From Candidatus Saccharimonadales bacterium (GTDB lineage Bacteria > Patescibacteriota > Saccharimonadia > Saccharimonadales > Saccharimonadaceae), in assembly GCA_052103595.1 (NCBI GenBank), contig JBQEKC010000002.1, positions 56,131-120,130 of the forward strand: DNA of 64,000 bases. Reading direction: 5' to 3'. Below are positions 1,806 to 62,338 of this stretch, piece after piece. The position numbers and the translations under genes were made by a program. Each line of letters starts with the position of its first letter. The stretch's first letter is position 1. The notes beneath the pieces were generated by a model. The model was not told the DNA's origin and searched no databases. It saw nothing but the letters and a program-made list of their open reading frames with translations.

Positions 1806-1894
1806 ATCTTCTTTAGTATACGCTATATTTGTTATGGTTTATATACTCGTATTGTAGCATATTTTGCAACGTTTTGCAAGAGTTGGGTACAGCT

Positions 1895-2092
1895 TTAGCG
1901 TGATTCAGGCGTTTGCGCTTCAATCGGTACAGGCACTGCTGCCATTTTGCGCGGGCGGTAATACACGATAAGCACCGCCATCGAACCATAAAAAAGCATC
2001 CAAGCAGTGTTCACACCAATCAGCATCGCATCGCCAATCGTAGTTGCATACGAGATATGGCGATCACTTGCCCTACCATCCACATTACCCAA
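1895..2092 (-). CDS. hypothetical small membrane protein (weak call)
   Basis: 65-codon ORF with TTG start and one hydrophobic helix (AWMLFYGSMAVLIVYY). No recognisable family. Confidence 0.25.
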   Translation of the reverse strand: MGNVDGRASDRHISYATTIGDAMLIGVNTAWMLFYGSMAVLIVYYRPRKMAAVPVPIEAQTPESR

Positions 2093-2141
2093 GTGCTAAG
2101 ATTAAACTCGTCCGAGTTTTTTATGCGGATCAGGTTAATAT

Positions 2142-2173
2142 AAAACACCCTCGGCTTTCACTGAGGGTGTTTT
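2142..2173 (-). terminator. Rho-independent terminator after rnj
   Basis: 11-bp perfect stem aaaacaccctc/gagggtgtttt with a 10-nt loop. T-run on the minus-strand reading, 14 nt past the rnj stop. Confidence 0.7.
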
Positions 2174-2186
2174 CATAAGCGCGATA

Positions 2187-4328
2187 TTAATAAGCGCGTG
2201 GTTCTTCCCGATTTTTTGGCATTGTCACCTCTGTATCAGGCACTTGTTTTTCGGGGAATTTCTTTGGCGCAGGGCGTTTAAATTCGCCTTCAGAGCCGTC
2301 TTTCTTGCCGTTATGACGACGGTCATTATTGCGGTCGTTATTCCCCCCGCCGCGATTGCCGCCAATTTCGTTAATCACAGGGATGACAATTGGCGTGCGA
2401 CGTGTTTGGTCGTAAAGCAAGTGGGTAATTTCGTCTTTGAGTTCTTTTTTCAAAACATCCATATCCACTTTTTTGCCGCCAAAGCTACGAGCAACTTTTT
2501 GCTTCAAGTATTGGCGAATGAGGTTCATCAACTCTTCGCTGTCACGCAGGTAGATAAACCCACGACTGATGATATCTGGGCTGGTCATCAAGCGACCACT
2601 GCCCTTTTGTACCGTCAACACCACCACAAACATTCCTTCTTGGCTCATATGGATGCGGTCTTTCAAGACTACTTCACTTACCGTTGCACCAGAATCATCG
2701 TACATAATACCGCCAACAGGGACGCGGCCGTTCTTGCGAGCGCTGTCTGACGTAATTTCAATCACGTCACCGCTATCACAGACAAAAATGTTATTACGTG
2801 GAATTGCACATTCGCGTTCAGCAAGCTCGGCGTTATGCACCAACATGTGGAATTCACCATGAATTGGCATGTAATATGTTGGATTGAGCGCGTTAATCAA
2901 CTTAACGTGATCGTCGTAGTAACCGTGCCCTGAAAGGTGCAGCGGGCCAATACCAGTCAAGTGCGTTTTGCCGTTTTGAATCACCTCAGAACCTTCACGC
3001 ATCAAACCATCAACCGTACGCACGACATACTTTTCGTTTCCCGGAATTGGGTTCGAACTAAAGACCACGACGTCGCTGTTTTTGATCTTGATATGGCGGT
3101 GTGAACCTGTCGCCATGCGGTTGAGCACCGCGTTCAGCTCGCCCTGGCTACCAGTCGAAACAATTGTCACCTTTCCATCAGGCAACTTAATGATGTCTTC
3201 CATCTTCATAATGACATCTTTAGGTACATTAATCGTACCAGTGCGCAGTGCCACTTCGAGGTTTTGCAACATACTGTATCCTGCCAGCGCCACTTTGCGG
3301 CCATGCTTTTTGGCTTCGTCCATAATGCCTTGAATACGGTGAATTTGTGAGCTAAACGCACTAATCACCAGGCGACTTTGTTGGTACTTGTCCATCACTT
3401 CACCAATACTGTGTTGGATCTCTGGCTCGCCGTGTGAGTGCGTACCTTCGCTTTCACAGTTAGTACTTTCGTTCATCAGCATTAAGATGCCTTCTTTGGC
3501 GCTAATTTCGGTTAGGCGCTCAAGGTCAAATTTTTTGCCGTCAACCGGATTGTCTTCAAAACGCCAGTCACCGGTATCTACCAACACACCAAGTGGCGTA
3601 CGAATCACGACCGCAGTACTGTCTGGAATTGAGTGGTTCACGCGCACCAATTCAATATTAAAGTGTTCACCAAGCTGCGCACGTTCGTGTGCTTCTGGGT
3701 TCAGCTCGTGATACTCTGGCTCGTATGTTCCATCGCTATCATCCATGTTGCGCTTGAGCATACCAATCGTAAACTTACTAGCATAGACTGGCGCTGGAAT
3801 TTGCGGAATCAGGTGGCGGAAAGCGCCAATGTGGTCGAGGTGGCCGTGCGTAAACACCACACCCTTAATCATGTGCTTGCGTTCAAGCAAGTAGCTAATA
3901 TCTGGCGTAATGTAGTTGATGCCTGGGTAGTCTGCACCGGGGAACAAAAAGCCCATATCAACAATCACGATTTCTTTATCGTATTCGATCGCCATCATGT
4001 TTTTGCCGATACCCATTTCACCAAGGCCGCCGATTGGCATCACCTTTAGTTTTGGACCATTTGTACGTGGCTGCTTTTTCCATTCTGCCATGCTAAATTG
4101 GCGACCTTCATAGCCGTTGTAAATGCTTTTGTTGACCGGGATATCGATCATGTGCTGGCTCGCGCGCAGATTCACGTTTTCGCTGGTGCGGCGCTGTGCA
4201 CGAAACACTTCGCCTTTGCGGGTATTGGTTTGGTTCAGCGCAGCAATGTTTGATTTACGCTTCTGTTGGCTTTGTGGCCGTTTGCTCATGTCATCTGACT
4301 GAGTATTACCGAGTCTTCGTTGACCCAT
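2187..4328 (-). CDS. rnj: ribonuclease J (metallo-beta-lactamase/beta-CASP) with basic low-complexity N- and C-terminal extensions
   Basis: 713-aa ORF with THGHLDHIG motif and core starting KVMPIGGLGEMG. SD AAGGAG about 9 nt upstream of ATG 4328. Confidence 0.92.
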   Translation of the reverse strand: MGQRRLGNTQSDDMSKRPQSQQKRKSNIAALNQTNTRKGEVFRAQRRTSENVNLRASQHMIDIPVNKSIYNGYEGRQFSMAEWKKQPRTNGPKLKVMPIGGLGEMGIGKNMMAIEYDKEIVIVDMGFLFPGADYPGINYITPDISYLLERKHMIKGVVFTHGHLDHIGAFRHLIPQIPAPVYASKFTIGMLKRNMDDSDGTYEPEYHELNPEAHERAQLGEHFNIELVRVNHSIPDSTAVVIRTPLGVLVDTGDWRFEDNPVDGKKFDLERLTEISAKEGILMLMNESTNCESEGTHSHGEPEIQHSIGEVMDKYQQSRLVISAFSSQIHRIQGIMDEAKKHGRKVALAGYSMLQNLEVALRTGTINVPKDVIMKMEDIIKLPDGKVTIVSTGSQGELNAVLNRMATGSHRHIKIKNSDVVVFSSNPIPGNEKYVVRTVDGLMREGSEVIQNGKTHLTGIGPLHLSGHGYYDDHVKLINALNPTYYMPIHGEFHMLVHNAELAERECAIPRNNIFVCDSGDVIEITSDSARKNGRVPVGGIMYDDSGATVSEVVLKDRIHMSQEGMFVVVLTVQKGSGRLMTSPDIISRGFIYLRDSEELMNLIRQYLKQKVARSFGGKKVDMDVLKKELKDEITHLLYDQTRRTPIVIPVINEIGGNRGGGNNDRNNDRRHNGKKDGSEGEFKRPAPKKFPEKQVPDTEVTMPKNREEPRAY

Positions 4329-4460
4329 ATCGTTTCTTCTCCTTTATTTTGAGTACATTTGTATAAAAACGTTAGATTTTGCAAGTAGTATACAGGGGAT
4401 TGTTTGATGGCGAGTTATTTGTTGATAGTTGCCGACAAGTATCCCTCGTAAGTGCTCTTT

Positions 4461-4489
4461 ATTATAGCGATCCGGCAAACTGTTGTCAA
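4461..4489 (-). promoter_or_regulatory. sigma70-type promoter of rnj (TTGACA-17-TATAAT), about 125-nt leader
   Basis: Minus strand reads TTGACA acagtttgccggatcgc TATAAT. Both hexamers are consensus with a 17-nt spacer. Confidence 0.6.
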
Positions 4490-4509: not shown

Positions 4510-5082
4510 TTATGACTGGCGTGCCACCTCTGCCGCCGCCAAAAAATCATCAATCAACGTTTGACGCATGCTGCCATTATAGAGTGCTGCTGCCGGGTGA
4601 TATAACGGAATCACTAAGAACTCGTGATTATGGTACACCACGGGACGTGCCTTGCCGTGCTCCTGCGAAATCTTTAGCTTTGGAATAAAACACGCGCCAC
4701 TGTGCCGCCCCAAGGTAATCACTACACGCGGGTTAATAAGTTCAAGTTGGCGCATGAGATACGGCCAAAATGCCCGCTTTTCTGCGTCTGACGGGTCACG
4801 ATTATGTGGCGGACGATATTTTACTATGTTTGTAATATAGACATCCGAGCGCTCCATACCAGCCGCTCGCAACATTTCGTCTAAAAATTTGCCGCTAGCG
4901 CCAACAAACGGCTTACCCTGCAAATCTTCGTTTTTTCCGGGTGCCTCGCCGATGAACACAATATCGGCCTGCGGATTGCCATCGCCCATTACCAATTGCG
5001 TCGCCTGCGCGGCAAGTTCTGGGCAAATGTTTTTTGCGATAATATCGTGTTGCAATTCATCAAGAGAAGCGAGTTGATCCAT
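4510..5082 (-). CDS. udg: uracil-DNA glycosylase, family 4-like
   Basis: Motifs GDGNPQADIVFIGEAPGKNEDLQGKPFVGASGKFL and ITNIVKYRPP. Start moved to MDQLASL (5082) because an extended -10 box lies inside the longer ORF. Confidence 0.85.
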   Translation of the reverse strand: MDQLASLDELQHDIIAKNICPELAAQATQLVMGDGNPQADIVFIGEAPGKNEDLQGKPFVGASGKFLDEMLRAAGMERSDVYITNIVKYRPPHNRDPSDAEKRAFWPYLMRQLELINPRVVITLGRHSGACFIPKLKISQEHGKARPVVYHNHEFLVIPLYHPAAALYNGSMRQTLIDDFLAAAEVARQS

Positions 5083-5088
5083 GACTCT

Positions 5089-5097
5089 ATTATAGCA
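5089..5097 (-). promoter_or_regulatory. extended -10 box abutting start codon (leaderless-type)
   Basis: Minus strand reads TGcTATAAT agagtc ATG (N=6). Confidence 0.55.
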
Positions 5098-5164
5098 CCC
5101 TAGCAAAAACATCCTCGCCGAGAAGCGCCCCCGACGAGAATGTTTTGCATAAATAGAAGTGACG

Positions 5165-5983: not shown

Positions 5984-8098
5984 TTATTCCATATCACGCA
6001 TGGTCAGCGCTAAGCGACCACGGTCGTCAATGCTGGCGAGTTTCACTCGCACCATCTGACCTTCACTCAACACATCAGTCACGTTTTCAATACGTTCGTT
6101 GCTGATCTGGCTAATGTGCAGCATGCCATCAATCCCTGGCATAATGTTCACAAAGGCCCCAAAGTCTTTAATCGTTACCACTTTTCCTTCGTAGATTTTG
6201 CCGACTTCTGGCTCTTCGGTAAGATCTTTAATCCACTGCAAAGCGCGCTCGATGCTTGGGCCGTTGGCGCTCGCAACCGTAATCAAACCGTCTTCTTTAA
6301 TGTCGATTTCGGCACCAGTTTCAGAGGTGATTTTATTGATCATCTCGCCGCCTTTACCAATCACGGCACCAATTTTGTCTGGGTTGATTTTGATCTTTTC
6401 GATACGTGGCGCAAATGGGCTGAGTGCGTCTTTTGGCGCGGCCAAAATGCTCTTCATGTGATCCATAATATGCATGCGGCCTGGACGCGATTGCTCGACA
6501 GCTTGGCGCAAAATGTCCACCGAAAGGCCGTGCACCTTCATGTCCATTTGGATAGCCGTGACGCCCTTTTCGGTACCAGTTACCTTAAAGTCCATGTCGC
6601 CAGCGAAGTCTTCCGCGTCAGCAATATCGCTCAGCACGTATGGCGTATCACCATCCATCATAAGCCCCATAGCGATTCCGCTCACTGGCGCCTTCAGTGG
6701 CACACCCGCGTCCATCAATGCCAAACAGCTTGAACAGGTTGCTGCCATCGATGTTGAACCGTTCTGGCTCATGATTTCTGTCACGCTACGAATCGCGTAC
6801 GGGAACTCTTCCGCAGTTGGCAACACTGGTGTGAGCGCGCGTTCTGCTAAGTAGCCGTGGCCAATTTCACGGCGACCTGGGCTGCCAAGGCGGCGCACTT
6901 CGCCCACGGTATAGCCTGGCGCGTTGTAATGGTGCATGTAGCGGCGCTCGCCGTCGGTCACTTCCATCGTATCAACAATTTGTGCGTAGCTCAGTGGCGC
7001 CAATGTAACAATGTTCATCGCCTGCGTTACCCCGCGAGTAAACAAGCTCGATCCGTGCGTGCGTGGCAAAATACCAACTTCGCTCGAAAGCGGACGGATT
7101 TCGTCCAGACGGCGACCGTCGGGGCGCAAATTATCTTCAACGATGCCGCGGCGCACATCAAGATGCAATGCCATCGTAAAGGCTTCGTCGTATTCATCAT
7201 GGATTTCTTCGTAGCGATCATTGCCAAATTTTTCTCGCATCGCGTTATGGAATTCCCAACGGATTTCGTTTACAACATTGTTGCGTTCTGGATATTCTTT
7301 ACGGATATTAGAGCCGAACTTTCCATCCACCCAATGATTGACCTCTTCTTGGATGTCAGGGTTTGGCAAAACAAGTTCGTATTCCTGCGCAGCTGGCTGT
7401 ACCTTTTCAACCAGTTCTCTTTGTAGGGCAATGGCTGGCTGCATGTGTTCGTGCGCCCAGGCCATTGCTTCTACGACATCGGCTTCTGGCACTTCGTTGG
7501 CGGCAGCTTCTACCATCGTAATACCGCTTTCAATACCAGCAACTACCAAATCAAGGTCGCTTTGCTCGCGTTCTTCTGGCGTCAAAAAGGCTTTGAATTC
7601 ACCGTTCACACGGCCAACGCGCAAGCCTGCAACTGGACCGTCAAATGGTGCACCGCTCAACATCAGTGCAGTTGACGCAGCAATCATCGCTACCATATCC
7701 GGGCGGAAATCTGGATCCATCGAAAGCACGCTTGAAACCACCTGCACTTCTTGGCGGTAGCCCTTCGGAAACAGTGGGCGGATTGGGCGGTCAATCAAAC
7801 GGCCAATCAAAATTGCTTCATCGCTTGGGCGACCTTCGCGCTTAATAAAACGGCTGCCGCTGATTTTACCCGCTGCATACATTTTTTCTTCGTAATCAAC
7901 ACTGAGCGGGAAATAATCTAGCTGAATTGGCTTCGTGCCAACTTGCGTCGTGCCAAGCACTACGGTGTCACCGTAACGCACCAACACACTTGCCGTCGTA
8001 CGAAAACCAACGCGGTTTACTTCCAGTGTCAATGTTTTGCCGGCAAGCTCTGTGCTGACAGAAATAACGTCCTTGCCGTTTGGATTAATAATAGACAT
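5984..8098 (-). CDS. pnp: polynucleotide phosphorylase
   Basis: Two RNase PH domains plus KH (GKGGEMINKI) and S1 (GKVVTIKDFGAFV). Start at MSIINPNG preceded by AAGGAGG. Confidence 0.95.
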   Translation of the reverse strand: MSIINPNGKDVISVSTELAGKTLTLEVNRVGFRTTASVLVRYGDTVVLGTTQVGTKPIQLDYFPLSVDYEEKMYAAGKISGSRFIKREGRPSDEAILIGRLIDRPIRPLFPKGYRQEVQVVSSVLSMDPDFRPDMVAMIAASTALMLSGAPFDGPVAGLRVGRVNGEFKAFLTPEEREQSDLDLVVAGIESGITMVEAAANEVPEADVVEAMAWAHEHMQPAIALQRELVEKVQPAAQEYELVLPNPDIQEEVNHWVDGKFGSNIRKEYPERNNVVNEIRWEFHNAMREKFGNDRYEEIHDEYDEAFTMALHLDVRRGIVEDNLRPDGRRLDEIRPLSSEVGILPRTHGSSLFTRGVTQAMNIVTLAPLSYAQIVDTMEVTDGERRYMHHYNAPGYTVGEVRRLGSPGRREIGHGYLAERALTPVLPTAEEFPYAIRSVTEIMSQNGSTSMAATCSSCLALMDAGVPLKAPVSGIAMGLMMDGDTPYVLSDIADAEDFAGDMDFKVTGTEKGVTAIQMDMKVHGLSVDILRQAVEQSRPGRMHIMDHMKSILAAPKDALSPFAPRIEKIKINPDKIGAVIGKGGEMINKITSETGAEIDIKEDGLITVASANGPSIERALQWIKDLTEEPEVGKIYEGKVVTIKDFGAFVNIMPGIDGMLHISQISNERIENVTDVLSEGQMVRVKLASIDDRGRLALTMRDME

Positions 8099-8193: not shown

Positions 8194-8202
8194 AGTATAC
8201 CA
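8194..8202 (-). promoter_or_regulatory. extended -10 box upstream of pnp (leadered, about 90 nt)
   Basis: Minus strand reads TGgTATACT. Located between the rpsO terminator and the pnp SD. Confidence 0.4.
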
Positions 8203-8258: not shown

Positions 8259-8286
8259 AAACACCCTCTCGTTCGAGAAGGTGTTT
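8259..8286 (-). terminator. terminator/attenuator between rpsO and pnp
   Basis: Stem acaccctctc/gagaaggtgt (1 mismatch) with 4-nt loop. Minus-strand reading is followed by TTTTGTTTT. Confidence 0.6.
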
Positions 8287-8304
8287 TGGCGCTAATTTAC
8301 GTAA

Positions 8305-8571
8305 TTATTTACGCAAACCAAGCTTTTCAAGTGTTGCTTTGTACGCGTCAAAGTCGGTTCGTTCAAGATACTTCAAGAGGCGCTTACGCTTACCTACCAT
8401 CTGTACGAGTCCACGACGAGCCATGAAGTCGTGCTTATTCGCCTTCAAGTGCTCTGTAACCTCTTTGATACGAGCCGTCAAAACCGATACCTGTGCCTGT
8501 GGGCTACCAACATCGTTTTTGTTGACCTGAGTCAAAGCAATCGCTTTTTCCTTGTTCTCCTTAGTGATCAT
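8305..8571 (-). CDS. rpsO: 30S ribosomal protein S15
   Basis: MITKENKEKAI...GSPQAQVSVLTARIKEVTEHLKANKHDFMARRGLVQMVGKRKRLLKYL. Classic rpsO-pnp order. Confidence 0.93.
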   Translation of the reverse strand: MITKENKEKAIALTQVNKNDVGSPQAQVSVLTARIKEVTEHLKANKHDFMARRGLVQMVGKRKRLLKYLERTDFDAYKATLEKLGLRK

Positions 8572-8578
8572 CCTTTGT

Positions 8579-8587
8579 AGAATAGCA
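8579..8587 (-). promoter_or_regulatory. extended -10 box abutting rpsO start
   Basis: Minus strand reads TGcTATTCT acaaagg ATG (N=7). The aaagg could alternatively act as a weak SD. Confidence 0.45.
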
Positions 8588-8633
8588 GATTTTGCGCATG
8601 ATTGCAACCGGGCGCGTGCGCTATACTATACAT

Positions 8634-9407
8634 ATGCTACAAATTTTGCTTCATTCGTCCAAAACAATGCGCCACGAACCTGCGGAATATGCGCCGTTCG
8701 ATACGCCACGCTTTTTACCTAAAGCTACTACACTGGCGGATATATGGAAGTCAGCGCCAGCCGAAATCGTTGCCACGCACATGAAGCTTTCCCCTGCTAA
8801 AACCGCCGAAACGCAGCAGCTTTTTGCCAACTGGAGCGCGACGCCGCAGCACCCTATTCCCGCCATTGATGCCTTCAAAGGCGATATCTACAGCGGCCTG
8901 CAAGTTCCCAGCTGGGCAGAAGCGGACCGCCGCTACGCTCACGCACATTTGCTGATTTTATCAGGGCTGTACGGCGCGCTGCGGGCGTGCGATGGTATTG
9001 CGCCGTATCGCCTAGAAATGGGCTACAAATTGCCTGATGGCGCGTCGATGTACGCGTTTTGGGGCGATACGATTGCGCAGGCATTGCCGGCCATCACCTC
9101 TGTTATTATCAATCTTTCGGCGGTTGAATATACCAAGGCACTGCTGCCGCACGTATCGGCGCGCGTCATTACGCCAAAGTTCCTTACCATCAGCCCAAAA
9201 ACCGGTGAACCTACGTTTGTTACCGTGCACGCCAAAATCGCCCGCGGTGCCTTTGCGCGCTGGCTAATTACGCAGAGGGTCGAAGACATATCAGAGTTGC
9301 CTACATTTGCAGAACTTGGCTACCGCTACAACGCCGCGCTCAGTTCGTCAGAACAGCCAGTGTTTGTGTGCGAAATGTTTGCAGGGTTGGGATTGAGCGT
9401 ACGCTGA
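8634..9407 (+). CDS. yaaA: YaaA/UPF0246 (DUF328) peroxide-stress family protein
   Basis: MLQILLHSSKTM start, then FKGDIYSGL, LILSGLYGALRACDGIAPYRLEM, FWGD and HAKIARGAFARW, which match my recollection of the YaaA family pattern. Confidence 0.85.
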   Translation: MLQILLHSSKTMRHEPAEYAPFDTPRFLPKATTLADIWKSAPAEIVATHMKLSPAKTAETQQLFANWSATPQHPIPAIDAFKGDIYSGLQVPSWAEADRRYAHAHLLILSGLYGALRACDGIAPYRLEMGYKLPDGASMYAFWGDTIAQALPAITSVIINLSAVEYTKALLPHVSARVITPKFLTISPKTGEPTFVTVHAKIARGAFARWLITQRVEDISELPTFAELGYRYNAALSSSEQPVFVCEMFAGLGLSVR

Positions 9408-9408
9408 G

Positions 9409-10404
9409 TTAGCGCACTAAATCGTAGTCGTTTTGCGCACCAGGGTGTTGATTTGCCGTATCAAAAGCAGCAAATACATCATTTCGGGCGTGATTAATAG
9501 CCGCCGCTTTTTCGTTCGTTTGGCCATGTTGCGGTGATAACAGATCATGGGCCTCCGGTACTGTTTCTGCTGAACCTGCAGTATCTCCTTCGACAAATTG
9601 TTCGCCATCAGGCTCGGCAATTTCGCTCAGTTCTTGCTGATTCTGTTCACTTTCCTGCAAAACATCATCAAGCGTTTCGGGCGCGTCTTCTGCAGGATCA
9701 CCTTCGCCAACTGGCACCGCCAAATCATACTGCCGAATATTTCGGCCAAGTTCAGCCAGCGTTTCGTTATCTAAACGGTTTGCACCACCCGCTTCTTTCG
9801 CATTCTGAAAGTAGGCGCGCGCAGCCGGGCTTTGAGCCAACAACTGTTGCACATTCGCCAGTGCGTCCGGGTCACCTTCGTCGGCCGCAGCAATCATTTT
9901 TTCCGCAATCGCCACGTTTGCCACATCATTCTGGCTTTCTTGATCCAAAAATTCAGCCTTTCCGACTACCTCTTCACCATCAGCTGCGTTTTCTAATTTT
10001 TCGCCCAAGACGCGCTTTTGCACATCGGTATGGTCCACTTCGCCCACCGCCGTTGGCGACAACGCCGCGTTCGCCTCTTGCGTGGCAATCTCTACACTAT
10101 GCCCAAACGTATGCGCATCCACCGAGTGCGTTTGCGTTAACGCCCCATATGCCTCGGCTACACCTTCAGAGAGCGCCTCTGTGTCACCACTCGAATCTAC
10201 GCCAAGGTGCGCTTTTGCATCAACACTCAATCTATCCACAACTTCTTGCGCATTAAAATCATGCGCCTGCACTTCGCTTACGCCAAATACACCGTTAAGA
10301 TATTCGTTGTACAATTGATTTTGCTCAGCGATTTCTTCCGGTGTTCGTTCGCGCTCCTCGCGCGGTTTTTCTTGTTTTTCGAATGATGCTTGGTCGGGAA
10401 ACAT
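9409..10404 (-). CDS. hypothetical, extremely acidic soluble protein
   Basis: 331-aa ORF, D/E/Q/A-rich, no TM, no recognisable domain. Its stop lies 1 nt from the yaaA stop. Confidence 0.6.
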   Translation of the reverse strand: MFPDQASFEKQEKPREERERTPEEIAEQNQLYNEYLNGVFGVSEVQAHDFNAQEVVDRLSVDAKAHLGVDSSGDTEALSEGVAEAYGALTQTHSVDAHTFGHSVEIATQEANAALSPTAVGEVDHTDVQKRVLGEKLENAADGEEVVGKAEFLDQESQNDVANVAIAEKMIAAADEGDPDALANVQQLLAQSPAARAYFQNAKEAGGANRLDNETLAELGRNIRQYDLAVPVGEGDPAEDAPETLDDVLQESEQNQQELSEIAEPDGEQFVEGDTAGSAETVPEAHDLLSPQHGQTNEKAAAINHARNDVFAAFDTANQHPGAQNDYDLVR

Positions 10405-10837: not shown

Positions 10838-11497
10838 TTAGCTATCAATCCCAAAATCCGCCAATGTCTGTGCATCGGCCACATTCCATTCGCGAATCTG
10901 CGTTCGGCGTAGCTCGTTACAGTACGCGCCCGTTCCCAGCGCTTGGCCAATATCCACCGCTAAGCTACGAATATACGTCCCGCTCGAAACGTGCGTGCGG
11001 ATTTTGAGCGTTGGGTAGGAATATTCCACCAACTCAAGCGAGTGCACGGTGATGGTGCGCAGCGGTAATTCCACTTCTTTACCATCTCGCGCGAGTTTGT
11101 AAGCGCGCTGACCATCAATTTTAATGGCGCTAAAAATTGGCGGGCGTTGCTGAATATCACCAGTAAATTTTGCGAGTGCACTACTTACTTCTTCTAGCGA
11201 AGGTTGCGCGCCATCTACCCCTGTTATTTCGCCTTCTGGGTCACCTGTTGTACTGGTTTTGCCGAGCGTAATGGTCGCTTCGTACACCTTGTCGAGCTTG
11301 GTGTATTCGCCGGCTTTTTTGCATTCTTTGCCGATGACTAAAATCATCAATCCAGTCGCAAATGGATCAAGCGTGCCGGTATGCCCCACTTTCACTTTTT
11401 TGCCAGCTTGCTGGCTTAATACGCGCCGAATCCGCGCCACTACACCAAAACTTGTCAGCCCCGCAGGCTTGTCAATTAAAAGAATCCCATCTGTCAT
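10838..11497 (-). CDS. truB: tRNA pseudouridine(55) synthase
   Basis: GILLIDKPAGLTSFGVV and KVGHTGTLDPFATGLMILVIG (catalytic Asp motif). Second ATG chosen because the -10 box sits 2 nt from the first ATG. Confidence 0.9.
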   Translation of the reverse strand: MTDGILLIDKPAGLTSFGVVARIRRVLSQQAGKKVKVGHTGTLDPFATGLMILVIGKECKKAGEYTKLDKVYEATITLGKTSTTGDPEGEITGVDGAQPSLEEVSSALAKFTGDIQQRPPIFSAIKIDGQRAYKLARDGKEVELPLRTITVHSLELVEYSYPTLKIRTHVSSGTYIRSLAVDIGQALGTGAYCNELRRTQIREWNVADAQTLADFGIDS

Positions 11498-11505
11498 CGC
11501 CATTT

Positions 11506-11514
11506 ATTGTAGCA
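11506..11514 (-). promoter_or_regulatory. extended -10 box abutting start codon (leaderless-type)
   Basis: Minus strand reads TGcTACAAT aaATGgcg ATG (N=8 to the second ATG). Confidence 0.55.
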
Positions 11515-11563
11515 TACAAAACACGCGCCCTTCTTCATGCGAGGGCGCGCGGTGTTTACGCAA

Positions 11564-51444: not shown

Positions 51445-52485
51445 CTATTGTAGCTCTATTTTAAATTTTTCAATTAGTTTTACGGGCGTTGGATCAACAC
51501 CGTTCAAAATCGCTACGTAGATACTGACGAAGTCAGCCAAGATGCAGCCCCATAACATTTGTGCGACAGGTGTTACCCCTTGCAAGCTTACAATGTGCGA
51601 CTTTGGCCGCAGACCGCTCAACAAGCGATCAGTTACCTCGAATCGTTTCAAGATCCGCTCATGTTCAAAATTACTGATAAGGTCAAATACAGCGTACGGT
51701 TTTTCAACTGGATGGCTTGCCCATCCCATAAATTCATTGTGGTTAAATTCTGGCAATTCATTATAAAACGCGACATTTTTGGCGTTTTCGTTCCAACTAA
51801 TTTTCCATTTGTACGCCACTGGCGCCATCATGTGGCCTGCGTAAAAAACAGCTGTTTTGCCAACACTCATCAATGCAAGTTGTTTTGCAATGTTTTGATC
51901 GGTAGTTACAGCAGCACCCCACTCGCTTGATGCGCGCTTGAGCCAATCAGCATGTTCGGCAAGCTGTTCAAAATACAGCCCGTCGAGCATCGAGAAATGT
52001 GTCAACATTTTTAGCAACGCACGTAGATTGTATAACATCGCCATGCGCGGCTGCAGACCGCTCGGCATTGGGATAAACACCATATTGTGTTGGTGGGCTT
52101 CATCAGCTAGCGCACCTCCAGCCGCTAGCACCCCCACCTCAGCACCACGTTCGCGAGCATCACGCAAACACGCCACAGTTTCTTCGGTGTTACCAGAATA
52201 ACTACTGCAAATAACCAGCGTATCTTTATCAACATAATGTGGCAGTTGATATGTACGAACGATTTCAATCTGAAGCGACGTCTCGGTTTCGAGCCAGTTT
52301 TTTGCAATAAGCGCCGCCAGCGCCGAACCGCCCATACCGGCCACAACAACCCGCTTTAGTACACGACCATCATGCTCAGGATAGAGCACCTCAGGATCGT
52401 ACGTTACCTGCTCCCACTGTGATGCGGCCACGCCAAGTGCATCTGAAGCATCCCGCTGTGCCACTACCTGTAAATCATCTAACAT
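51445..52485 (-). CDS. bifunctional phosphoglucose/phosphomannose isomerase (SIS-domain PGI/PMI family)
   Basis: VVVAGMGGSALAALIAKNW, ICSSYSGNTEETV and a second SIS-like half. SD GGGGGA upstream. Confidence 0.85.
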   Translation of the reverse strand: MLDDLQVVAQRDASDALGVAASQWEQVTYDPEVLYPEHDGRVLKRVVVAGMGGSALAALIAKNWLETETSLQIEIVRTYQLPHYVDKDTLVICSSYSGNTEETVACLRDARERGAEVGVLAAGGALADEAHQHNMVFIPMPSGLQPRMAMLYNLRALLKMLTHFSMLDGLYFEQLAEHADWLKRASSEWGAAVTTDQNIAKQLALMSVGKTAVFYAGHMMAPVAYKWKISWNENAKNVAFYNELPEFNHNEFMGWASHPVEKPYAVFDLISNFEHERILKRFEVTDRLLSGLRPKSHIVSLQGVTPVAQMLWGCILADFVSIYVAILNGVDPTPVKLIEKFKIELQ

Positions 52486-52573: not shown

Positions 52574-53095
52574 ATGCAATTGAACAACACAACCAACATC
52601 AGCGACGACCAAGAGCTTGCGCAAGCGCTTGCTGGCGTCAATAAAGATACACTCCCGTTTGAAGAGACGCAGCCAGAAACAATCTCGCCAGTTGAAAAAG
52701 CTGAGCAAACCGTTGAAGAAGAGCCGACACCAGCCCAAGAAGAGCCAGCATCAACACCAGAACCCGAGCAAACTCCAGAGCCGGCTGGTCCTTCACCAGT
52801 GGTCGAAGAGCCGCTTGACCTTGGTACACTACCAAACCGTGAAGGTCTTGATAGTGTCAAGATTGAAGCAATCAACGAACTACGCCCACTTATTGACAAA
52901 CTCACTATTCCTGCAGAAGAAAAGTTTGACACGTACCTTCTCTTGATCCGCACAACCGACGATCAAGAACTGGTTGCGCCAGCTCACGAAGTTGCCAAGC
53001 AAATCGAAGATGAATCACGCCGTGCAATGGCTCTGCTTGATATCATTAAAGAAATTGACTACCTTTCAAACAAAACAACAACTGCAACCGAATAA
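52574..53095 (+). CDS. hypothetical acidic protein with Pro/Glu/Thr-rich linker
   Basis: ATG preceded by GAGGTGG. Motif DDQELAQALAG at the N-terminus recurs as DDQELVAPAHE in the C-terminal part. No family recognised. Confidence 0.55.
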   Translation: MQLNNTTNISDDQELAQALAGVNKDTLPFEETQPETISPVEKAEQTVEEEPTPAQEEPASTPEPEQTPEPAGPSPVVEEPLDLGTLPNREGLDSVKIEAINELRPLIDKLTIPAEEKFDTYLLLIRTTDDQELVAPAHEVAKQIEDESRRAMALLDIIKEIDYLSNKTTTATE

Positions 53096-53147: not shown

Positions 53148-54109
53148 GGTGGAATTGCCGATTTACGCCACGCATCATCTCGTGCGATCGGCACCTCTGG
53201 CACGTCATTTGTTTGTGGATGGACAGCTTTAGCATCGTAATCAAACCCTGCAAAGTTTTCAAACAAGCGAACGGTTGCGAGCGGAATACCAGCTTCGCCA
53301 GCAAAATAACGATCAACTGTGTCGTAACTTGCTTGGTTCATGGCGTGATACACCGGTGTGAGTGCCTCATCAGCCAAAAAGTCTTTCCAAAAATGGTGTG
53401 CATTCTTTTGGTGCTCCGAACGAATATATAAGTGGTAGATCGGTTGGTCAATTGGCGCAAAAATCGTATAGTCTGCTGCAAATAACCGCAGTGAATGCAC
53501 CAGCTCTTCACCGATAAAACAAATAGTTCGCTCATACGGTACATCTACACAGCGAGCGCCCGGCCCAAACTGCAACCCACCCGCTGCAAACATGGCTTGT
53601 TCGGGCTGGCGCACTGCGCGTGGCAGAGCTTTACCAAAAAACGTTGGAATTTTGTCCATAAACATATCATGAACGATCAGTCGATTTGGGTCGGATAAAA
53701 TCAGCCGCTCGCTGCCATCATCGTTGTAACGGAACGCTGGCGGATACGACGAAAGAATCGCCTTTTCATCACCACACAGCTGCCACTGCTCTTCCAGCCG
53801 AACATCCCATTGTGAAATAAAGCGCATATGTGAATCGATTTGCAGATAAAAATCTTCGCCCGCATACAGCGCATCGCAATCTGCTCGCGCCTCGCCAACG
53901 CCGCGCGCCTCTCGCCAATCACGTTCAATAATCGTAAAACGATCATCATGATGATACTGCGCCAGCTGATCTTGGGTTTCTGGACCGTATTGATGCACGA
54001 TAGCGAATCGCAATCGTTCAGGATCGGTCGCATTTGCTAAACATGAAGTAATTGTTTTTGGTAGTTCGTCATCGCGGTAGGCCGCAATTTCAACCAAGAT
54101 TGTATTCAT
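53132..54109 (-). CDS. glycosyltransferase (GlcNAc-transferase-like GT-A fold)
   Basis: MNTILVEIAAYRDDELPKTI, WREARGVGEARA and YLQIDSHMRF resemble the Glyco_transf_GlcNAc family as I recall it. Start set by the adjacent -10 box. Confidence 0.75.
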   Translation of the reverse strand: MNTILVEIAAYRDDELPKTITSCLANATDPERLRFAIVHQYGPETQDQLAQYHHDDRFTIIERDWREARGVGEARADCDALYAGEDFYLQIDSHMRFISQWDVRLEEQWQLCGDEKAILSSYPPAFRYNDDGSERLILSDPNRLIVHDMFMDKIPTFFGKALPRAVRQPEQAMFAAGGLQFGPGARCVDVPYERTICFIGEELVHSLRLFAADYTIFAPIDQPIYHLYIRSEHQKNAHHFWKDFLADEALTPVYHAMNQASYDTVDRYFAGEAGIPLATVRLFENFAGFDYDAKAVHPQTNDVPEVPIARDDAWRKSAIPPKKHS

Positions 54110-54115
54110 GTTTCC

Positions 54116-54124
54116 ATTGTAACA
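54116..54124 (-). promoter_or_regulatory. extended -10 box abutting start codon (leaderless-type)
   Basis: Minus strand reads TGtTACAAT ggaaac ATG (N=6). Confidence 0.55.
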
Positions 54125-54165
54125 AATATCACCCCGTCTCAATTCACGACGGGGTGATATTTGTT
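54121..54165 (-). terminator. groEL terminator hairpin (18-bp perfect stem)
   Basis: aacaaatatcaccccgtc / 9-nt loop / gacggggtgatatttgtt, located 16 nt past the groEL stop. Confidence 0.7.
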
Positions 54166-56145: not shown

Positions 56146-56174
56146 ATTATAATCAAACTAATTAGCACTTGCAA
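56146..56174 (-). promoter_or_regulatory. groES-groEL promoter TTGCAA-17-TATAAT
   Basis: The -35 (56169-56174) lies inside the CIRCE spacer and the -10 is at 56146-56151, leaving a leader of about 25 nt to the SD. Confidence 0.6.
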
Positions 56175-56188
56175 GCATGGAGTGCCAA
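56162..56188. promoter_or_regulatory. CIRCE operator (HrcA-binding inverted repeat)
   Basis: TTAGCACTT-gcaagcatg-GAGTGCCAA versus consensus TTAGCACTC-N9-GAGTGCTAA (8/9 plus 8/9), 48-74 nt upstream of groES. Confidence 0.8.
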
Positions 56189-56276
56189 TAAGCGCTCTCT
56201 TCTATTGACTTTTATACATAATCATGTTAGCATAAAAATATACATATCCTACAAAAAACAAAAAAGAAACAACATC

Positions 56277-57574: not shown

Positions 57575-58174
57575 ATGGACACAATAGCGCAAAAACAGCA
57601 GTTTTATCAATCACTTCATCACACACTTGAAGCCTACCTTCAGCAATTCCCTGACGAAAAAGATCGTCTTCGCGAGCTCACTACGCATGCAAACAACCCT
57701 GATATTGACCTTCGTCTTCGCAGTACCATTCCGCAAGGACACCTTTGCGCCAGCGGCATTTTAGTTTTGCCAAATAAAAAGATTTTGATGTTAAAGCATA
57801 AAGCGCTCGGTATTTGGGTAGTGCCTGGCGGCCACTATGACCTTACCGATCAAACGTTGGCCGATACTGCCATTCGCGAAACGACTGAAGAAACGTCTCT
57901 ACGGGGAGTCCGCCTCCACCCCTGGCACGAAGCCTCTGGCATTCCACTTGATATCGACACGCACCCTATTCCAGAACGAAAAGAAAAAAACGAAGGCCCG
58001 CACCAACATTTTGATTTTCGCTACCTGCTAACGCTCGACAACCCCGACGAGTTGCTGTCGCAACTTACCCTCGATACGAATGAAGTGCTTGATTTTAAGC
58101 TTTTTTCACCAGAAGAAATCGACCCAAATAGCAGTATTGCGCCAGCCTTACGCAAACTAACTATAGCCCTATAG
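57575..58174 (+). CDS. Nudix-fold hydrolase with divergent Nudix box
   Basis: PGGHYDLTDQTLADTAIRETTEETSL approximates GX5EX7REUXEEXGU, but with Asp for the first Glu, one extra residue, and Ser for Gly. Confidence 0.75.
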   Translation: MDTIAQKQQFYQSLHHTLEAYLQQFPDEKDRLRELTTHANNPDIDLRLRSTIPQGHLCASGILVLPNKKILMLKHKALGIWVVPGGHYDLTDQTLADTAIRETTEETSLRGVRLHPWHEASGIPLDIDTHPIPERKEKNEGPHQHFDFRYLLTLDNPDELLSQLTLDTNEVLDFKLFSPEEIDPNSSIAPALRKLTIAL

Positions 58175-59476
58175 CGCTTTCGCCTCTTCGTAATATTGAG
58201 CAAAATGCTCTTTCAAGAACTTTGGAAAGAGCGCATTAGCCGGACAAACTACTTTATAGATAGAATGTAATTCAGCAGTACCTTGCGTTGCATCATAATT
58301 TTTAAACTGTCCAATATTTGCGTTAAACAGTTTGAAGTCCTTGGATGCTTTGTCGATACCATCGTTAATCATCTCACTATTCAGCTCTTCAATATTTGCG
58401 CCTGTTTCAATCAGATTTGCCGCTACGCCAGGTAGCACATTATTCGCCATAGCGCGCAAAAGTTTAGGATTTGGCGCCAACTCAACTTCTCCCCCTTCCT
58501 TGTAAAGTGGGACAAATATCTCGCTAAAATTCCTCAAATCGCCACCCGCTCTCTCTGGGTGTGCTTCAAGGTATTTTTCTGAAAAAGCGACGAGTGACTC
58601 TTGCGTACGAATCATCGCTGCCTGAATAGCCGGATCTTCCACGATATCACCCGCCAAAGATAACTCTTGTTCACTATACGGGCGACTTTGTATATCATAC
58701 ACTCGAACGAGCCCTTCAATATCTTCCTGTTGAAGCTCGATTGCGACGTCATTTTGATCATCGGTCAAAAAATCTGGATAAAAGCTCTTTTTTGCCATAT
58801 GAGGCTTCACAGCCTCGTCACCACGTTTGTCGCTCATATAATGTTCGTCTATATATTGTATATGTGCTGGAACCTCAGTATTGATAAACTCAGCAAAAGC
58901 ATACCTCGCCGCCTCTGAGGGTGAAATAGCTTCTTTTACAGCTGTCGCTCTCGCTTTACTATCAATAGACGCGAGACCCTTGCTTAACAGTTCAGTTACA
59001 ATCGTGGTGGCATGCGCAGGGTTTAGGCCAAGCTCTTGATGATACGCGTCAATAGCATCCAAAACACTTCGCGGTATCGATTCAGGCGTATACTCTTGTT
59101 CGATTCTATTCTTAATCTCTTCGTAGCTTCTTTCAGGGCTAATCGCAAAGTAATCCTCTAATTCAAAGCCAGGCTTTGCGCCATATTCTGGGGTGACATA
59201 CTGCGCCCTCTCCCAATAACGATCTTTCATTTCGATCAGTGCACTATTATCATGAGCTTGCTCTGTGTCGCCTGTAAAAACCGGAGAAATATCCTTACGA
59301 ATCGCAGCAGTTGCAAGCTTCACCTCTTTTGGATCAGGCGAGTGCCTCCCCTCTTCCGAGGCGTGGCGCGCCGTCCTCTTGTCCCCTAGCTCCTTGAAAT
59401 ACTCAGAATTTGGCTCACGAACTGCTTGTTCGCTAGGGCATGTCTTAGTGTGCTCGAAGTGTTTCACTTTTGTCAT
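58169..59476 (-). CDS. hypothetical protein (435 aa, orphan)
   Basis: Long clean ORF, soluble, helical and acidic, with no recognisable motif. Its stop overlaps the Nudix stop (CTATAG). Confidence 0.6.
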   Translation of the reverse strand: MTKVKHFEHTKTCPSEQAVREPNSEYFKELGDKRTARHASEEGRHSPDPKEVKLATAAIRKDISPVFTGDTEQAHDNSALIEMKDRYWERAQYVTPEYGAKPGFELEDYFAISPERSYEEIKNRIEQEYTPESIPRSVLDAIDAYHQELGLNPAHATTIVTELLSKGLASIDSKARATAVKEAISPSEAARYAFAEFINTEVPAHIQYIDEHYMSDKRGDEAVKPHMAKKSFYPDFLTDDQNDVAIELQQEDIEGLVRVYDIQSRPYSEQELSLAGDIVEDPAIQAAMIRTQESLVAFSEKYLEAHPERAGGDLRNFSEIFVPLYKEGGEVELAPNPKLLRAMANNVLPGVAANLIETGANIEELNSEMINDGIDKASKDFKLFNANIGQFKNYDATQGTAELHSIYKVVCPANALFPKFLKEHFAQYYEEAKAL

Positions 59477-60291: not shown

Positions 60292-61587
60292 CTACGACTG
60301 TTGAGTAAGTTCTCGCACTACGTCGCTATCGTTCCACGGTAGCTTCTCACCCTTCACAATGCGAAATTGTTCGTGCCCCATACCTGTGATCAGGATAATA
60401 TCCCCTTTTACTGCCACATCGAGTGCTTTTTTGATAGCTTCTTTTCGATCGGGCACTTCGGTAGTTTTTGCGCTACCACCAGCTTTTTCAATCCCTTCGT
60501 AGATATGGCGACGAATCGCGTTTGGATCTTCGTTGTAACTTTCTTCATCGGTCAGAACGATACGATCTGCCAAGCGAGCAGCAATTTCACCCATAATTGG
60601 GCGCTTAATCGCATCGCGATCACCACAAGCGCCAAAGACCAAAATAACACGGTTTTTTGAAAGTTCTTTTGCCGTTGTGAGCAGCTTTTCAAGCGCATCA
60701 GGCGTGTGAGCGTAATCTACCACGACGTCATAAGCAAGCCCTTCGGCGACACGCTCAAAGCGACCAGGAATCGCCTCTACATCAGCGGCGCCGGCAATAA
60801 TATCTTGTGTGTTAACGCCAAGCAAGTAGCAAACACTCGCAGCCGCGGTCATGTTGGCGATGTTAAATTCACCTGGAAGGTGTGTTGCCATCTCGAGTTC
60901 CGTTTGGTGATCAAACACAACCGTGGCTTCGCTCCCCTTCTTGAACAGCTTAGTTTTTGTAATTTTTGCCTCGGCTTCGTCGTGTGTACCATAGGTCATT
61001 TTTTGTTCGCTGGCAGTGAATTTGTCGAAGTACTCAAACCACTCATCGTCTCGGTTAAGTACAATGTAGCGTGGTTCCTGTGAAAACAACTTACCCTTCG
61101 CAGCAGCGTAATTTTCCATTGTCTTGTGGTAATCGAGGTGATCTTGTGTAAGGTTTGTCATCACCGCAGCTTCAATTGGTACACCATCAAGCTTATGTTG
61201 ATGAAGCGCGTGGCTGGTAATTTCTAGCACCACAAAATCAACCTTAGCCTTGCGAGCATCAGCAAAGAATTGCTGCATACGAGCAGTCGTTGCCACGGTA
61301 GCATTAAGGTCGTTCAGTTTTGTTTCGCCAACCACTTCAATCAACGCGGTTGTGAACATAGCAGTTTTGTGGCCAGCCTGCTTTAAGATTTGGTTAATAT
61401 AGCAACAGGTAGTAGTTTTGCCGTTTGTTCCTGTAACGGCGATGACACGAAGGCCTTTTGCCGGATTACCATATCGTGCTGACACCGCTTTCACGCGAGT
61501 TTTTCGATATGATTCCTCGATTGAACGAACCGCTCCAGACGGAAGCGTTTCTCTTACCCCTTTTGCCAACTTTTGCTTTATACCCAT
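60292..61587 (-). CDS. Mur ligase family protein, MurE-like with shortened N-terminal domain
   Basis: VIAVTGTNGKTTT, EITSHAL, MTNLTQDHLDYH, VFGACGDRDAIKRPIMG and LTDEESYNEDP. The P-loop is at about residue 53, versus roughly 110 in canonical MurE. Confidence 0.85.
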   Translation of the reverse strand: MGIKQKLAKGVRETLPSGAVRSIEESYRKTRVKAVSARYGNPAKGLRVIAVTGTNGKTTTCCYINQILKQAGHKTAMFTTALIEVVGETKLNDLNATVATTARMQQFFADARKAKVDFVVLEITSHALHQHKLDGVPIEAAVMTNLTQDHLDYHKTMENYAAAKGKLFSQEPRYIVLNRDDEWFEYFDKFTASEQKMTYGTHDEAEAKITKTKLFKKGSEATVVFDHQTELEMATHLPGEFNIANMTAAASVCYLLGVNTQDIIAGAADVEAIPGRFERVAEGLAYDVVVDYAHTPDALEKLLTTAKELSKNRVILVFGACGDRDAIKRPIMGEIAARLADRIVLTDEESYNEDPNAIRRHIYEGIEKAGGSAKTTEVPDRKEAIKKALDVAVKGDIILITGMGHEQFRIVKGEKLPWNDSDVVRELTQQS

Positions 61588-61788
61588 AGTAGTTCTATAG
61601 TACCACTAAACCGCTTCGTTGAGTACCATGCCAGTCTCAAAACCGACGAAGTTGCATGCAAGGTAGTATTGACTTAAGAATGATTATATAGTAAGATATG
61701 TCTATTCTGTGTCATCAATGATGCTCTATCGAACTGTGACCAGATACACCTTCTTTCACCGTTTGACCTACCGCAAGGAGTTAATGGT

Positions 61789-62202
61789 ATGTCCGAAAAT
61801 GCAGCTTTTCCAGCAGCCCTCTTGATGTGTGCAGCCGCCTTCGTCATGGTTATAGGAGGCTTGGATGCCGAACCAGTCGATCTGACGCCTGACAAAAGCT
61901 TCGCCGCCAACCCAGACGGATGCCCGAAGGACTACGACACGACTCCGGTCTACTCGAGCGATTCTGCCGACGTCGGCCAAAGTTGGGTCTCCGTTGAGAC
62001 CGACCGTCCCAATGACAAAGATAATGGCAGCATCACGTTGAACACCTCTGATGCCCCGAGCGAAATTAAGGAAGTCATGGTCTACAACGTGGCGAACGAA
62101 ATGCTGTTCGATACCTCTGTCGAAGCCGGCGATTCGTATCGACTCTACATGAAGGACTGGCTCGAAATCAGAGATATTTACCTCTGCACCAAGCCTGCCT
62201 AG
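61789..62202 (+). CDS. hypothetical small secreted or membrane-anchored protein
   Basis: AAGGAG 8 nt upstream. N-terminal hydrophobic segment AAFPAALLMCAAAFVMVIGG followed by a beta-rich acidic domain. Confidence 0.5.
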   Translation: MSENAAFPAALLMCAAAFVMVIGGLDAEPVDLTPDKSFAANPDGCPKDYDTTPVYSSDSADVGQSWVSVETDRPNDKDNGSITLNTSDAPSEIKEVMVYNVANEMLFDTSVEAGDSYRLYMKDWLEIRDIYLCTKPA

Positions 62203-62266
62203 CAACCCGGGAAGGAGGGTGTGGGGAGAAAGTTTTTATGCTTTCCCCCACTATCCCAGCTCACTC

Positions 62267-62296
62267 ACTCTCACCAATGCGTGAGAGTTTTCATTT
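62267..62296 (+). terminator. Rho-independent terminator
   Basis: Stem actctcac/gtgagagt followed by TTTTCATTT. Confidence 0.55.
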
Positions 62297-62319
62297 GGCA
62301 CGACGCAGTACCGTTAAAG

Positions 62320-62328
62320 TGGTATAAT
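62320..62328 (+). promoter_or_regulatory. extended -10 box close to tsaD start
   Basis: TGgTATAAT aaaactactc ATG (N=10), with no SD. Confidence 0.5.
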
Positions 62329-62338
62329 AAAACTACTC

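Follow-up and report, generated by a model that had tools for sequence, protein, structure and literature searches.

Extended -10 boxes directly ahead of start codons suggest leaderless mRNAs in a Saccharibacteria genome segment

A stretch of 64 kb from a Candidatus Saccharimonadales bacterium (contig JBQEKC010000002.1, positions 56,131 to 120,130; called the window below) was analysed for the motif TGnTAnnnT, which resembles an extended -10 promoter box and recurs immediately upstream of start codons. The window has a GC content of about 48%, and its minus strand carries the majority of the genes. In a curated set of 53 genes, inspected one by one, a -10 hexamer is located 6-10 nucleotides (nt) before the start codon in 25 cases, about 45%. 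The preliminary description of this DNA had reported the arrangement for at least 23 genes, and the present count confirms it; with starts picked blindly, the signal lies far above that in shuffled sequences. These genes are most probably transcribed into leaderless mRNAs, with leaders of 0-4 nt, from extended -10 promoters that would act without a -35 box, and they stand beside genes led by a Shine-Dalgarno (SD) sequence and others with A-rich leaders lacking an SD.

Distance between the box and the start codon

The spacer between hexamer and start codon is 6 nt in nine of the 25 genes, 7 nt in eight, 8 nt in four, 9 nt in three and 10 nt in one. Alignment of the sites yielded the consensus T-G-(C/G)-T-A-(T/C)-A-(A/C)-T-A-(A/G)-A. 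The TGn extension is present in 17 of the 25 genes, and the residues at -15 and -14 are T in 19 and G in 20 of 24 aligned sites, respectively. When all TGNTANNNT matches on both strands were listed, many copies of TGCTATACT, TGCTATAAT or TGCTACAAT were found 6-8 nt ahead of the ATG of a long open reading frame (ORF). The earlier designation of the box as TGnTAnnnT is appropriate for most genes, but the TGn is missing at ftsK, yaaA, orf15501, orf16206, the gene starting at 21235 and orn, and the TGCCACAAT element of orf18566 does not conform to TANNNT.

A second set of 48 genes was defined independently of the motif: in long, coding-looking ORFs, whichever in-frame ATG came first was taken as the start (blind starts). 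Dinucleotide shuffles of the upstream 60 nt (n=500) and internal in-frame ATGs (n=391) served as controls. At a spacer of 6-10 nt, TGNTANNNT precedes 13 of the 48 blind-start genes, compared to a mean of 0.31 and a maximum of 3 in the 500 shuffles, and 4 of the 391 internal ATGs (1%). For TANNNT at a spacer of 6-8 nt the respective values are 17 of 48 and 3.7 in shuffles, and the histogram of TANNNT positions at blind starts peaks at -12 and -13.

The more stringent pattern TGNTAYAMT occurs 25 times in the window, while 6.6 copies are expected and 25 were reached in none of 100 shuffles. Fourteen copies sit 6-10 nt before the ATG of a gene, three before tRNA genes and five before genes with longer leaders, so that 22 of the 25 are found upstream of a gene or tRNA in the correct orientation. 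The remaining three lie inside coding regions with no start codon behind them, at 37188-37196 (minus strand), 42726-42734 (minus strand) and 52822-52830 (plus strand), their hosts being an ORF of 963 amino acids (aa), nrdA and the 52574 ORF. The box at 37188, about 100 nt upstream of zwf, could be a second zwf promoter.

Start codons in the class are nearly uniform, with ATG in 24 of the 25 genes. A properly spaced SD-like core is missing in 24 as well, the exception being an ABC ATPase gene (ABC1) with AAGGAG within the spacer; its orthologue in the related locus L003 has no SD. Matches to AGGAG, GGAG or AAGGA at the Na+/H+ exchanger gene, dnaG and zwf are 13-18 nt away from the ATG, too distant for an SD role.

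The individual sites are given here as intervals ending with the start codon. A spacer of 6 nt is found at udg (5080-5097, minus strand, TGCTATAAT, ATG 5082), yaaA (8619-8636, plus, CGCTATACT, ATG 8634), orf15501 (15486-15503, plus, TACTATAAT, ATG), orf18566 (18564-18601, minus, a perfect TTGACA followed by 17 nt, (TGC)CACAAT, 6 nt and ATG), polA (21148-21165, minus, TGGTATACT, ATG 21150), zwf (37075-37092, minus, TGATATACT, ATG 37077, the TGA of the box being the stop codon of the upstream gene), orf47244 (47242-47259, minus, TGCTATACT, ATG), orf48063 (48061-48078, minus, TGCTATACT, ATG) and an N-acetylglucosamine (GlcNAc) glycosyltransferase gene (54107-54124, minus, TGTTACAAT, ATG 54109). 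Genes with 7 nt are rpsO (8569-8587, minus, TGCTATTCT, ATG 8571), holA (15029-15047, minus, TGCTATACT, ATG 15031), orf16206 (16190-16208, plus, AGGTATAAT, with GTG as the only non-ATG start of the class), the Na+/H+ exchanger gene (21219-21237, plus, TTGACC, 17 nt, TACAGT, ATG 21235), an AAA kinase-like gene (23355-23373, plus, TGCTACAAT, ATG 23371), dnaG (26793-26811, minus, TGCTATACT, ATG 26795), orn (28673-28691, minus, GTGTAAAAT, ATG 28675, with the box overlapping the end of the helicase gene) and a spermine-synthase-like (speE-like) gene (45786-45804, minus, TGCTATACT, ATG 45788).

Eight nt separate box and ATG at truB (11495-11514, minus, TGCTACAAT, ATG 11497), argS (33867-33886, minus, TGATACACT, ATG 33869), pyrG (35703-35722, minus, TGCTATAAT, ATG 35705) and ABC1 (48726-48745, plus, CACTATAAT, ATG 48743), the last being an addition to the genes named in the preliminary description. 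The spacer is 9 nt at ftsK (1803-1823, minus, GCGTATACT, ATG 1805), the DEAD/DEAH helicase gene (31634-31654, minus, TGGTATGGT, ATG 31636) and a Mur ligase gene (61585-61605, minus, TGGTACTAT, ATG 61587), and 10 nt at tsaD (62320-62341, plus, TGGTATAAT, ATG 62339). The assignment of ftsK is ambiguous and the gene may be leadered; a distal TGCTACAAT at 1851-1859 is likewise conserved. For rpsO and the helicase gene, the starts given here replace earlier ones, and the geometry holds.

Promoter properties and conservation of the motif

The motif is not confined to protein-coding genes. All four tRNA genes of the window, which are the sole Rfam matches at gathering threshold, are preceded by TGnTAnnnT at 10-32 nt from the mature 5' end. 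On the minus strand these boxes are TGCTACACT at 48640-48648, 10 nt before tRNA-Ser(gga), TGTTATAAT at 47426-47434, 19 nt before tRNA-Arg(gcg), TGGTAGAAT at 46648-46656, 12 nt before tRNA-Ser(cga), and TGTTATACT at 45980-45988, 32 nt before tRNA-Ser(gct). The same box is present 25-126 nt upstream of the SD-led genes pnp, rnj, mscL, rpsT and a type IV secretion pilin gene. Predicted leaders are about 89 nt for pnp (TGGTATACT, 8194-8202, minus), about 126 nt for rnj (a perfect TTGACA-17-TATAAT, 4461-4489, minus), about 30 nt for mscL (TGATACAAT, 32217-32225, minus) and about 25 nt for the pilin gene (TGCTATAAT, 46022-46030, plus).

At three genes a terminator is packed against the box. A hairpin of -20.9 kcal/mol with a T-tract abuts the -10 box of udg (5109-5143, minus), the T-tract behind a hairpin of -19.1 kcal/mol continues into the box of truB (11522-11551, minus), and the tail ATTTGTTACAAT of a hairpin of -21.4 kcal/mol includes the box of the glycosyltransferase gene (54127-54159, minus). 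From the end of hairpin and T-tract to the ATG there are 26 nt at udg, 24 nt at truB and 17 nt at the glycosyltransferase gene, most of which is occupied by the 9-nt box. If transcription from upstream is halted at these hairpins, a transcript of the gene's own can begin only in the last few nucleotides before the ATG. Further terminators are located just upstream of the helicase gene (31691-31713), the speE-like gene (45827-45847), orf47244 (47290-47317) and tsaD (62267-62288), ending 38-54 nt before the ATG.

Because the motif precedes untranslated tRNA genes, is present upstream of SD-led genes at variable distance and follows terminators directly, it is, judged by its sequence context, a predicted sigma-70 extended -10 promoter element and not a ribosome or translation signal. 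The positions that sigma-70 reads, TG at -15/-14, A at -11 and T at -7, are the ones conserved here. The primary sigma factor gene of the window (sigA, 24010-25080, minus, SD-led with a GTG start) encodes regions 1.2, 2, 3 and 4, and its product retains the region 2.4 and 3.0 sequences including IRIPVHMVE, whose H and E we take to be equivalent to H455 and E458 of Escherichia coli sigma-70, the residues contacting the TG. No conserved -35 columns were detected in the alignment of leaderless-type upstream regions. Canonical -35/-10 pairs in three scanned segments numbered 29, 26 and 34 compared to shuffle means of 25.0, 23.7 and 22.0; the third value is about 2.4 standard deviations above its mean (standard deviation 5.1), and the other two are at shuffle level. 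Such a scan misses the leaderless-type promoters, which fits the extended -10 type, for which a weak -35 signal is typical.

Conservation was followed in relatives. The closest relatives of the window by PyrG are seven genomes with 55-84% identity, all labelled Candidatus Saccharibacteria, and among the PNPase homologues listed there are close uncultured relatives only. In seven named Saccharibacteria loci (individual loci are designated L below), the blind procedure detected TGNTANNNT at a spacer of 6-10 nt in 25 of 94 ORFs compared to 0.85 in shuffles. Box and a 6-8 nt spacer are kept, with flanks that cannot be aligned, at argS in seven of seven, zwf in six of six and dnaG in six of six genomes, the window included, and also at orthologues of orn, polA, the AAA kinase gene and the helicase gene. 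Wherever leaderless-type orthologues were compared, the start is ATG. The SD-led state is likewise retained among relatives for sigA, nrdA, nrdB, mscL, the pilin gene and pgi. Switches between the two states were observed as well. For pyrG, TGnTATAaT-N8-10-ATG is present in six genomes, and in L003 (about 9950-10020) and L007 (about 230-300) the gene has a leader of 18-25 nt that contains GGGAG or GGAGAG; in L004 (about 7860-7920), an SD (GGAGGAATGATG) leads the speE-like gene. The layout recurs in L008, a Joint Genome Institute (JGI) contig whose genes were called independently, at the non-orthologous genes for a Zeta toxin, a His_Phos_1 protein and an aldose epimerase. A variant is found divergent from dnaG (26812-26859): the gene with ATG 26860 has TGnTTAAAT 10 nt before its ATG, conserved in the window, L002 and L003 and atypical in having T for A at the second hexamer position.

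Relatives also bear on the ambiguous starts of udg, truB, the speE-like gene and pyrG, which the pattern had been said to settle. This use of the pattern is reasonable, and well supported for udg (5082): the alternative ATG 5112 lies inside the terminator stem described above, and the independently called L008 orthologue has the same layout. For truB and the speE-like gene the geometry by itself points to the start. The start of pyrG (35705) gains support from L005, where a second Met is missing, but GGGAG precedes Met7 in L002 and L006.

The range of the arrangement was surveyed in 80 metagenome loci recovered via PyrG alignment, applying the same blind-start rule to TGNTANNNT at a spacer of 6-10 nt. 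At PyrG identities of at least 60%, 56 of 261 ORFs (21.5%) carry it, the hexamer starting at -12 in 25, at -14 in 17 and at -13 in 6, with 0-2 at most other positions. More distant relatives (53-59% identity) gave 13 of 160 ORFs (8.1%), and loci from other phyla (at most 48% identity, GC 27-72%) gave 2 of 228 (0.9%) and a flat histogram; the latter group thus serves as a negative control. The positional peak which the preliminary description had proposed to look for is therefore present, at -12/-13 in the window and at -12 to -14 in relatives beyond it.

Explanations of the geometry and other classes of gene start

The usual distance between a -10 box and the transcription start site (TSS) equals the 6-7 nt at which the spacing peaks. 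A hexamer that ends 6-10 nt ahead of the ATG would make RNA polymerase initiate on the A of the AUG or 1-4 nt upstream, and from this we infer both the TSS position and a leaderless mode of translation. The housekeeping sigma-70-type factor encoded at 24010-25080 would read the extended -10 element TGnTAnnnT with hardly any dependence on a -35 box. In the nine genes with 6 nt, the A of the ATG would be the seventh base after the hexamer, the canonical start position, and in the eight genes with 7 nt the eighth; spacers of 8-10 nt would result in transcripts with 1-4 extra bases before the AUG. This would leave no room for an SD, and ribosomes would presumably bind the 5'-terminal AUG directly. 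Promoter behaviour, spacing peak, SD-less starts, ATG preference, conservation and lineage limits support the leaderless-type interpretation offered earlier.

Other explanations were considered. The boxes could be real but secondary promoters, with the genes expressed mainly from polycistronic or read-through transcripts via termination-reinitiation coupling or 70S scanning, and leaderless species being minor. Many of the genes indeed start 12-45 nt behind a gene on the same strand (zwf, pyrG, orn) with the box inside or overlapping the upstream gene end, and low-depth contigs from X14, a pig metatranscriptome run, span the zwf start and the argS upstream region. However, an upstream transcript is not expected at udg, truB, the glycosyltransferase gene, the helicase gene, tsaD and dnaG, each of which comes after a strong terminator or a divergent intergenic region, and the exact spacing of 6-8 nt is conserved at orthologues, although an internal promoter with arbitrary leaders would not need it. 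The X14 library may, moreover, contain DNA. Overall, this explanation appears unlikely. A translation signal, that is, an AU-rich non-SD element bound by the ribosome or by S1 within a 5' untranslated region begun further upstream, is far less probable still. The distance of 6-10 nt to the ATG is that of an SD too, and non-SD initiation signals exist, for example in Bacteroidetes, group B of GeneMarkS-2 as outlined in that survey (PMC6028130). But the same 9-mer is found before the four tRNA genes and 25-126 nt upstream of genes with their own SD, TG at -15/-14 and T at -7 are positions read by sigma-70, complementarity to the anti-SD is absent, and another promoter upstream of the motif would find no space where hairpins end 17-26 nt before the ATG.

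Chance, compositional bias or an artefact of start choice had to be envisaged, because intergenic DNA is AT-rich and the starts of udg, truB and the speE-like gene had initially been picked with the motif in mind. These possibilities were tested and rejected, and their probability is regarded as negligible: with blind starts, the box was seen at 13 of 48 genes, compared to a mean of 0.31 in dinucleotide shuffles and to 1% of internal ATGs, the same pipeline yielded 0.9% of 228 ORFs in unrelated phyla, AT-rich ones included, and the independent JGI gene calls in L008 revealed the same layout. Leaderless mRNAs from extended -10 promoters thus remain the preferred explanation, but some observations speak against it. 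Seven genes have a spacer of 9-10 nt or no TGn, which points to leaders of 2-4 nt or to weaker promoters. In L002 and L006, GGGAG is located 7 nt before Met7 of pyrG, so that a short SD-containing leader is conceivable there. The two low-depth X14 contigs extend over the start of zwf (37053-37491) and over the region ahead of argS (33651-34082); hence read-through transcripts, or DNA in the library, exist. Finally, the 16S rRNA's anti-SD and the set of ribosomal proteins fall outside the window.

In the pig metatranscriptome runs X14 and X25, the region is covered at a depth of 2-5 by short contigs without usable 5' ends. Four further RNA runs contain rpsO contigs with a depth of up to 46, spanning 8265-8550 and reaching 40 nt past the stop codon. 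In three runs these contigs end 21-34 nt inside the coding region, none extending over ATG 8571 or the box, which agrees with a leaderless start at best weakly: contigs of the SD-led control groES, too, end in the ATG region or before it and fall short of the predicted TSS. A run search for the L006 locus found no RNA runs.

SD sequences of the AGGAG type precede rnj, pnp, rpsT, groES, groEL, mscL, nrdA, nrdB, the pilin gene, sigA and fpg, which have a promoter 25-126 nt upstream or are internal to an operon. This confirms the second class of the preliminary description, with leaders of 25-125 nt. Two initiation regimes in one genome had been proposed; leaderless-type and SD-led genes do coexist, but the scheme is a simplification, since a third group was detected. 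It comprises the genes starting at 10404, 13486 and 59476 (all minus), which have TTGACT/TTGACA-17/18-TAnnnT promoters and A-rich leaders of 24-38 nt without SD, for example aaaaccaagaATG.

Among the SD-led genes, the GTG of sigA (25077-25080, minus) overlaps the stop codon of dnaG in a GTGA and is served by a GGGAG/AGGAG SD, an arrangement that fits translational coupling. GTG, SD and the preceding sequence are conserved in L001, L003 and L005, and L002 appears to have ATG, so that the start is GTG in four of five genomes, that is, the window and three of the four relatives shown. The longest ORF for fpg (16511-17485, minus) is over-extended; the gene must in fact begin at ATG 17377 (MPELPEV, which includes the catalytic Pro2), which has GAGG ahead and an 8-nt overlap with the end of a HAD hydrolase gene and is SD-led and operon-internal. 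At groES, an inverted repeat resembling the controlling inverted repeat of chaperone expression (CIRCE), TTGGCACTC-N9-AAGTGCTAA at 56162-56188 (minus strand), is flanked by two candidate promoters, TGCTAACAT at 56224-56232 and TTGCAA-17-TATAAT at 56146-56174, and suggests heat-shock control of the HrcA type.

A strong TTGACA-17-(TGC)TAATAT promoter (34086-34114, minus) is located just past the pyrG stop codon, 215 nt upstream of argS, and the end of an X14 RNA contig at 34082 lies within a few nucleotides of its predicted TSS. The region ahead of argS, 33870-34085, contains a 51-aa ORF at 33897-34052 but no Rfam family and may represent either a leader that regulates argS or a small gene missed in annotation. 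A self-contained unit at 50835-51439 (plus) consists of TTGATA-17-(TGA)TATAAT, a 38-nt leader with a GAGAGGAGAG SD, a 156-aa ORF (50908-51378) without Pfam match and a strong terminator (51415-51439); its RNA fold is unusually stable, with a z-score of -3.6. RNase P RNA was considered for 50860-51440 and rejected, as Rfam gives no support and the SD-led ORF is located there. Permissive Rfam scans of 50800-51480 and 33800-34120 detected no credible family.

Pfam agrees with essentially all gene names used so far. Domains back ftsK, rnj, udg, pnp, rpsO, yaaA, truB, rpsT, holA, fpg and polA; the primary sigma factor gene downstream of dnaG, orn, the DEAD/DEAH helicase gene, mscL, argS, pyrG, zwf and nrdAB; the genes for the spermine-synthase-like protein, the type IV secretion pilin, the ABC transporter and the GlcNAc glycosyltransferase, and pgi; and groES/EL, tsaD, femAB and the genes for a NUDIX protein and the Mur ligase. 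ORFs without a Pfam domain are found at 37090-39981 (963 aa), 11564-13486 (640 aa) and 58169-59476 (435 aa), all on the minus strand, and no gene could be recognised between 59486 and 60291 or between 61606 and 62317.

Significance and comparison with known systems

The mechanism itself is already known, and the value of its probable occurrence in Saccharibacteria therefore lies in the lineage and in practical use. No report on leaderless mRNAs in Saccharibacteria, Patescibacteria or the candidate phyla radiation (CPR) was found in the open-access full text of PubMed Central (PMC) and bioRxiv, the matches being mentions in reference lists. Leaving supplementary tables aside, no statement on Saccharibacteria or CPR was found in the surveys of TA-led genes and of GeneMarkS-2 either (PMC3160421, PMC6028130). 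It is tentatively conceivable, at somewhat less than an even chance, that Saccharibacteria, or the clade with this genome, join Actinobacteria and Deinococcus-Thermus as a third major lineage of bacteria in which about 40-50% of genes are leaderless; the extended -10 promoters responsible would work independently of a -35 box and be fused to the terminator or gene end ahead of them.

If so, packing terminator, promoter and AUG into 20-55 nt would be a solution to genome compaction, the situation would parallel that of the leaderless-rich Actinobacteria that host cultivated Saccharibacteria, and starts in many CPR metagenome-assembled genomes (MAGs), called by SD-centred gene finders, would need revision. 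Where a promoter, and not an SD, marks nearly half of the starts in a genome, prediction based on SD sequences misplaces starts, as for udg, truB and the speE-like gene, and nearly all Saccharibacteria and CPR genomes are automatically annotated MAGs. Saccharibacteria have become transformable only recently, and expression cassettes reuse the upstream regions of tuf and rpsJ, whose promoters and leaders are undefined (PMC10633639); with a 9-nt box set 6-7 nt ahead of the ATG, a minimal signal for expression that can be moved between constructs would be available. Pervasive leaderless initiation, for which an ancestral origin is often discussed, would be extended to ultrasmall episymbionts with reduced ribosomes. 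The window also illustrates the packing of promoter, terminator and start codon in a compact genome, and the arrangement is of modest interest for the evolution of translation initiation in reduced genomes.

Among known systems, the surveys just mentioned describe, in outline, the closest counterparts. In TA-led leaderless genes, TANNNT precedes the translation start by about 12 nt (Zheng et al. 2011, PMC3160421), and in genomes of GeneMarkS-2 group C, mostly Actinobacteria and Deinococcus-Thermus, 25-50% of operons have a Pribnow box at a distance of 6-8 nt from the start (PMC6028130). As far as these outlines go, the window is similar in that TANNNT is found about 12 nt upstream, SD-led genes coexist and the arrangement extends to tens of percent of genes or operons, but its box is a fully informative TGnTA(T/C)A(A/C)T at 48% GC, unlike the degenerate TAnnnT of high-GC genomes. 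Archaeal leaderless genes (group D of GeneMarkS-2) share the fixed distance between promoter and start and the missing SD, but their signal is a TATA box with a B recognition element (BRE) about 26 nt upstream, read by a different transcription machinery. Extended -10 promoters of E. coli and Firmicutes resemble those of the window in the TG, placed one base upstream of the hexamer, in a -35 box that is weak or missing and in the H/E motif in sigma region 3.0; they normally drive leadered mRNAs, whereas those of the window would place the TSS on the start codon. In Mycobacterium tuberculosis, M. smegmatis and Deinococcus deserti, leaderless architecture has been verified experimentally (PMC3898074, PMC4633059, PMC4007540). 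As predicted here, many mRNAs of these bacteria start at AUG or GUG with a -10 box directly upstream, and two modes of initiation operate in one cell. While in M. tuberculosis, M. smegmatis and D. deserti this was demonstrated by TSS mapping, ribosome profiling and proteogenomics, for the window it is deduced from sequence and comparison. A further difference to these bacteria is the tiny, compact genome, in which terminator, promoter and AUG are accommodated within 20-55 nt.

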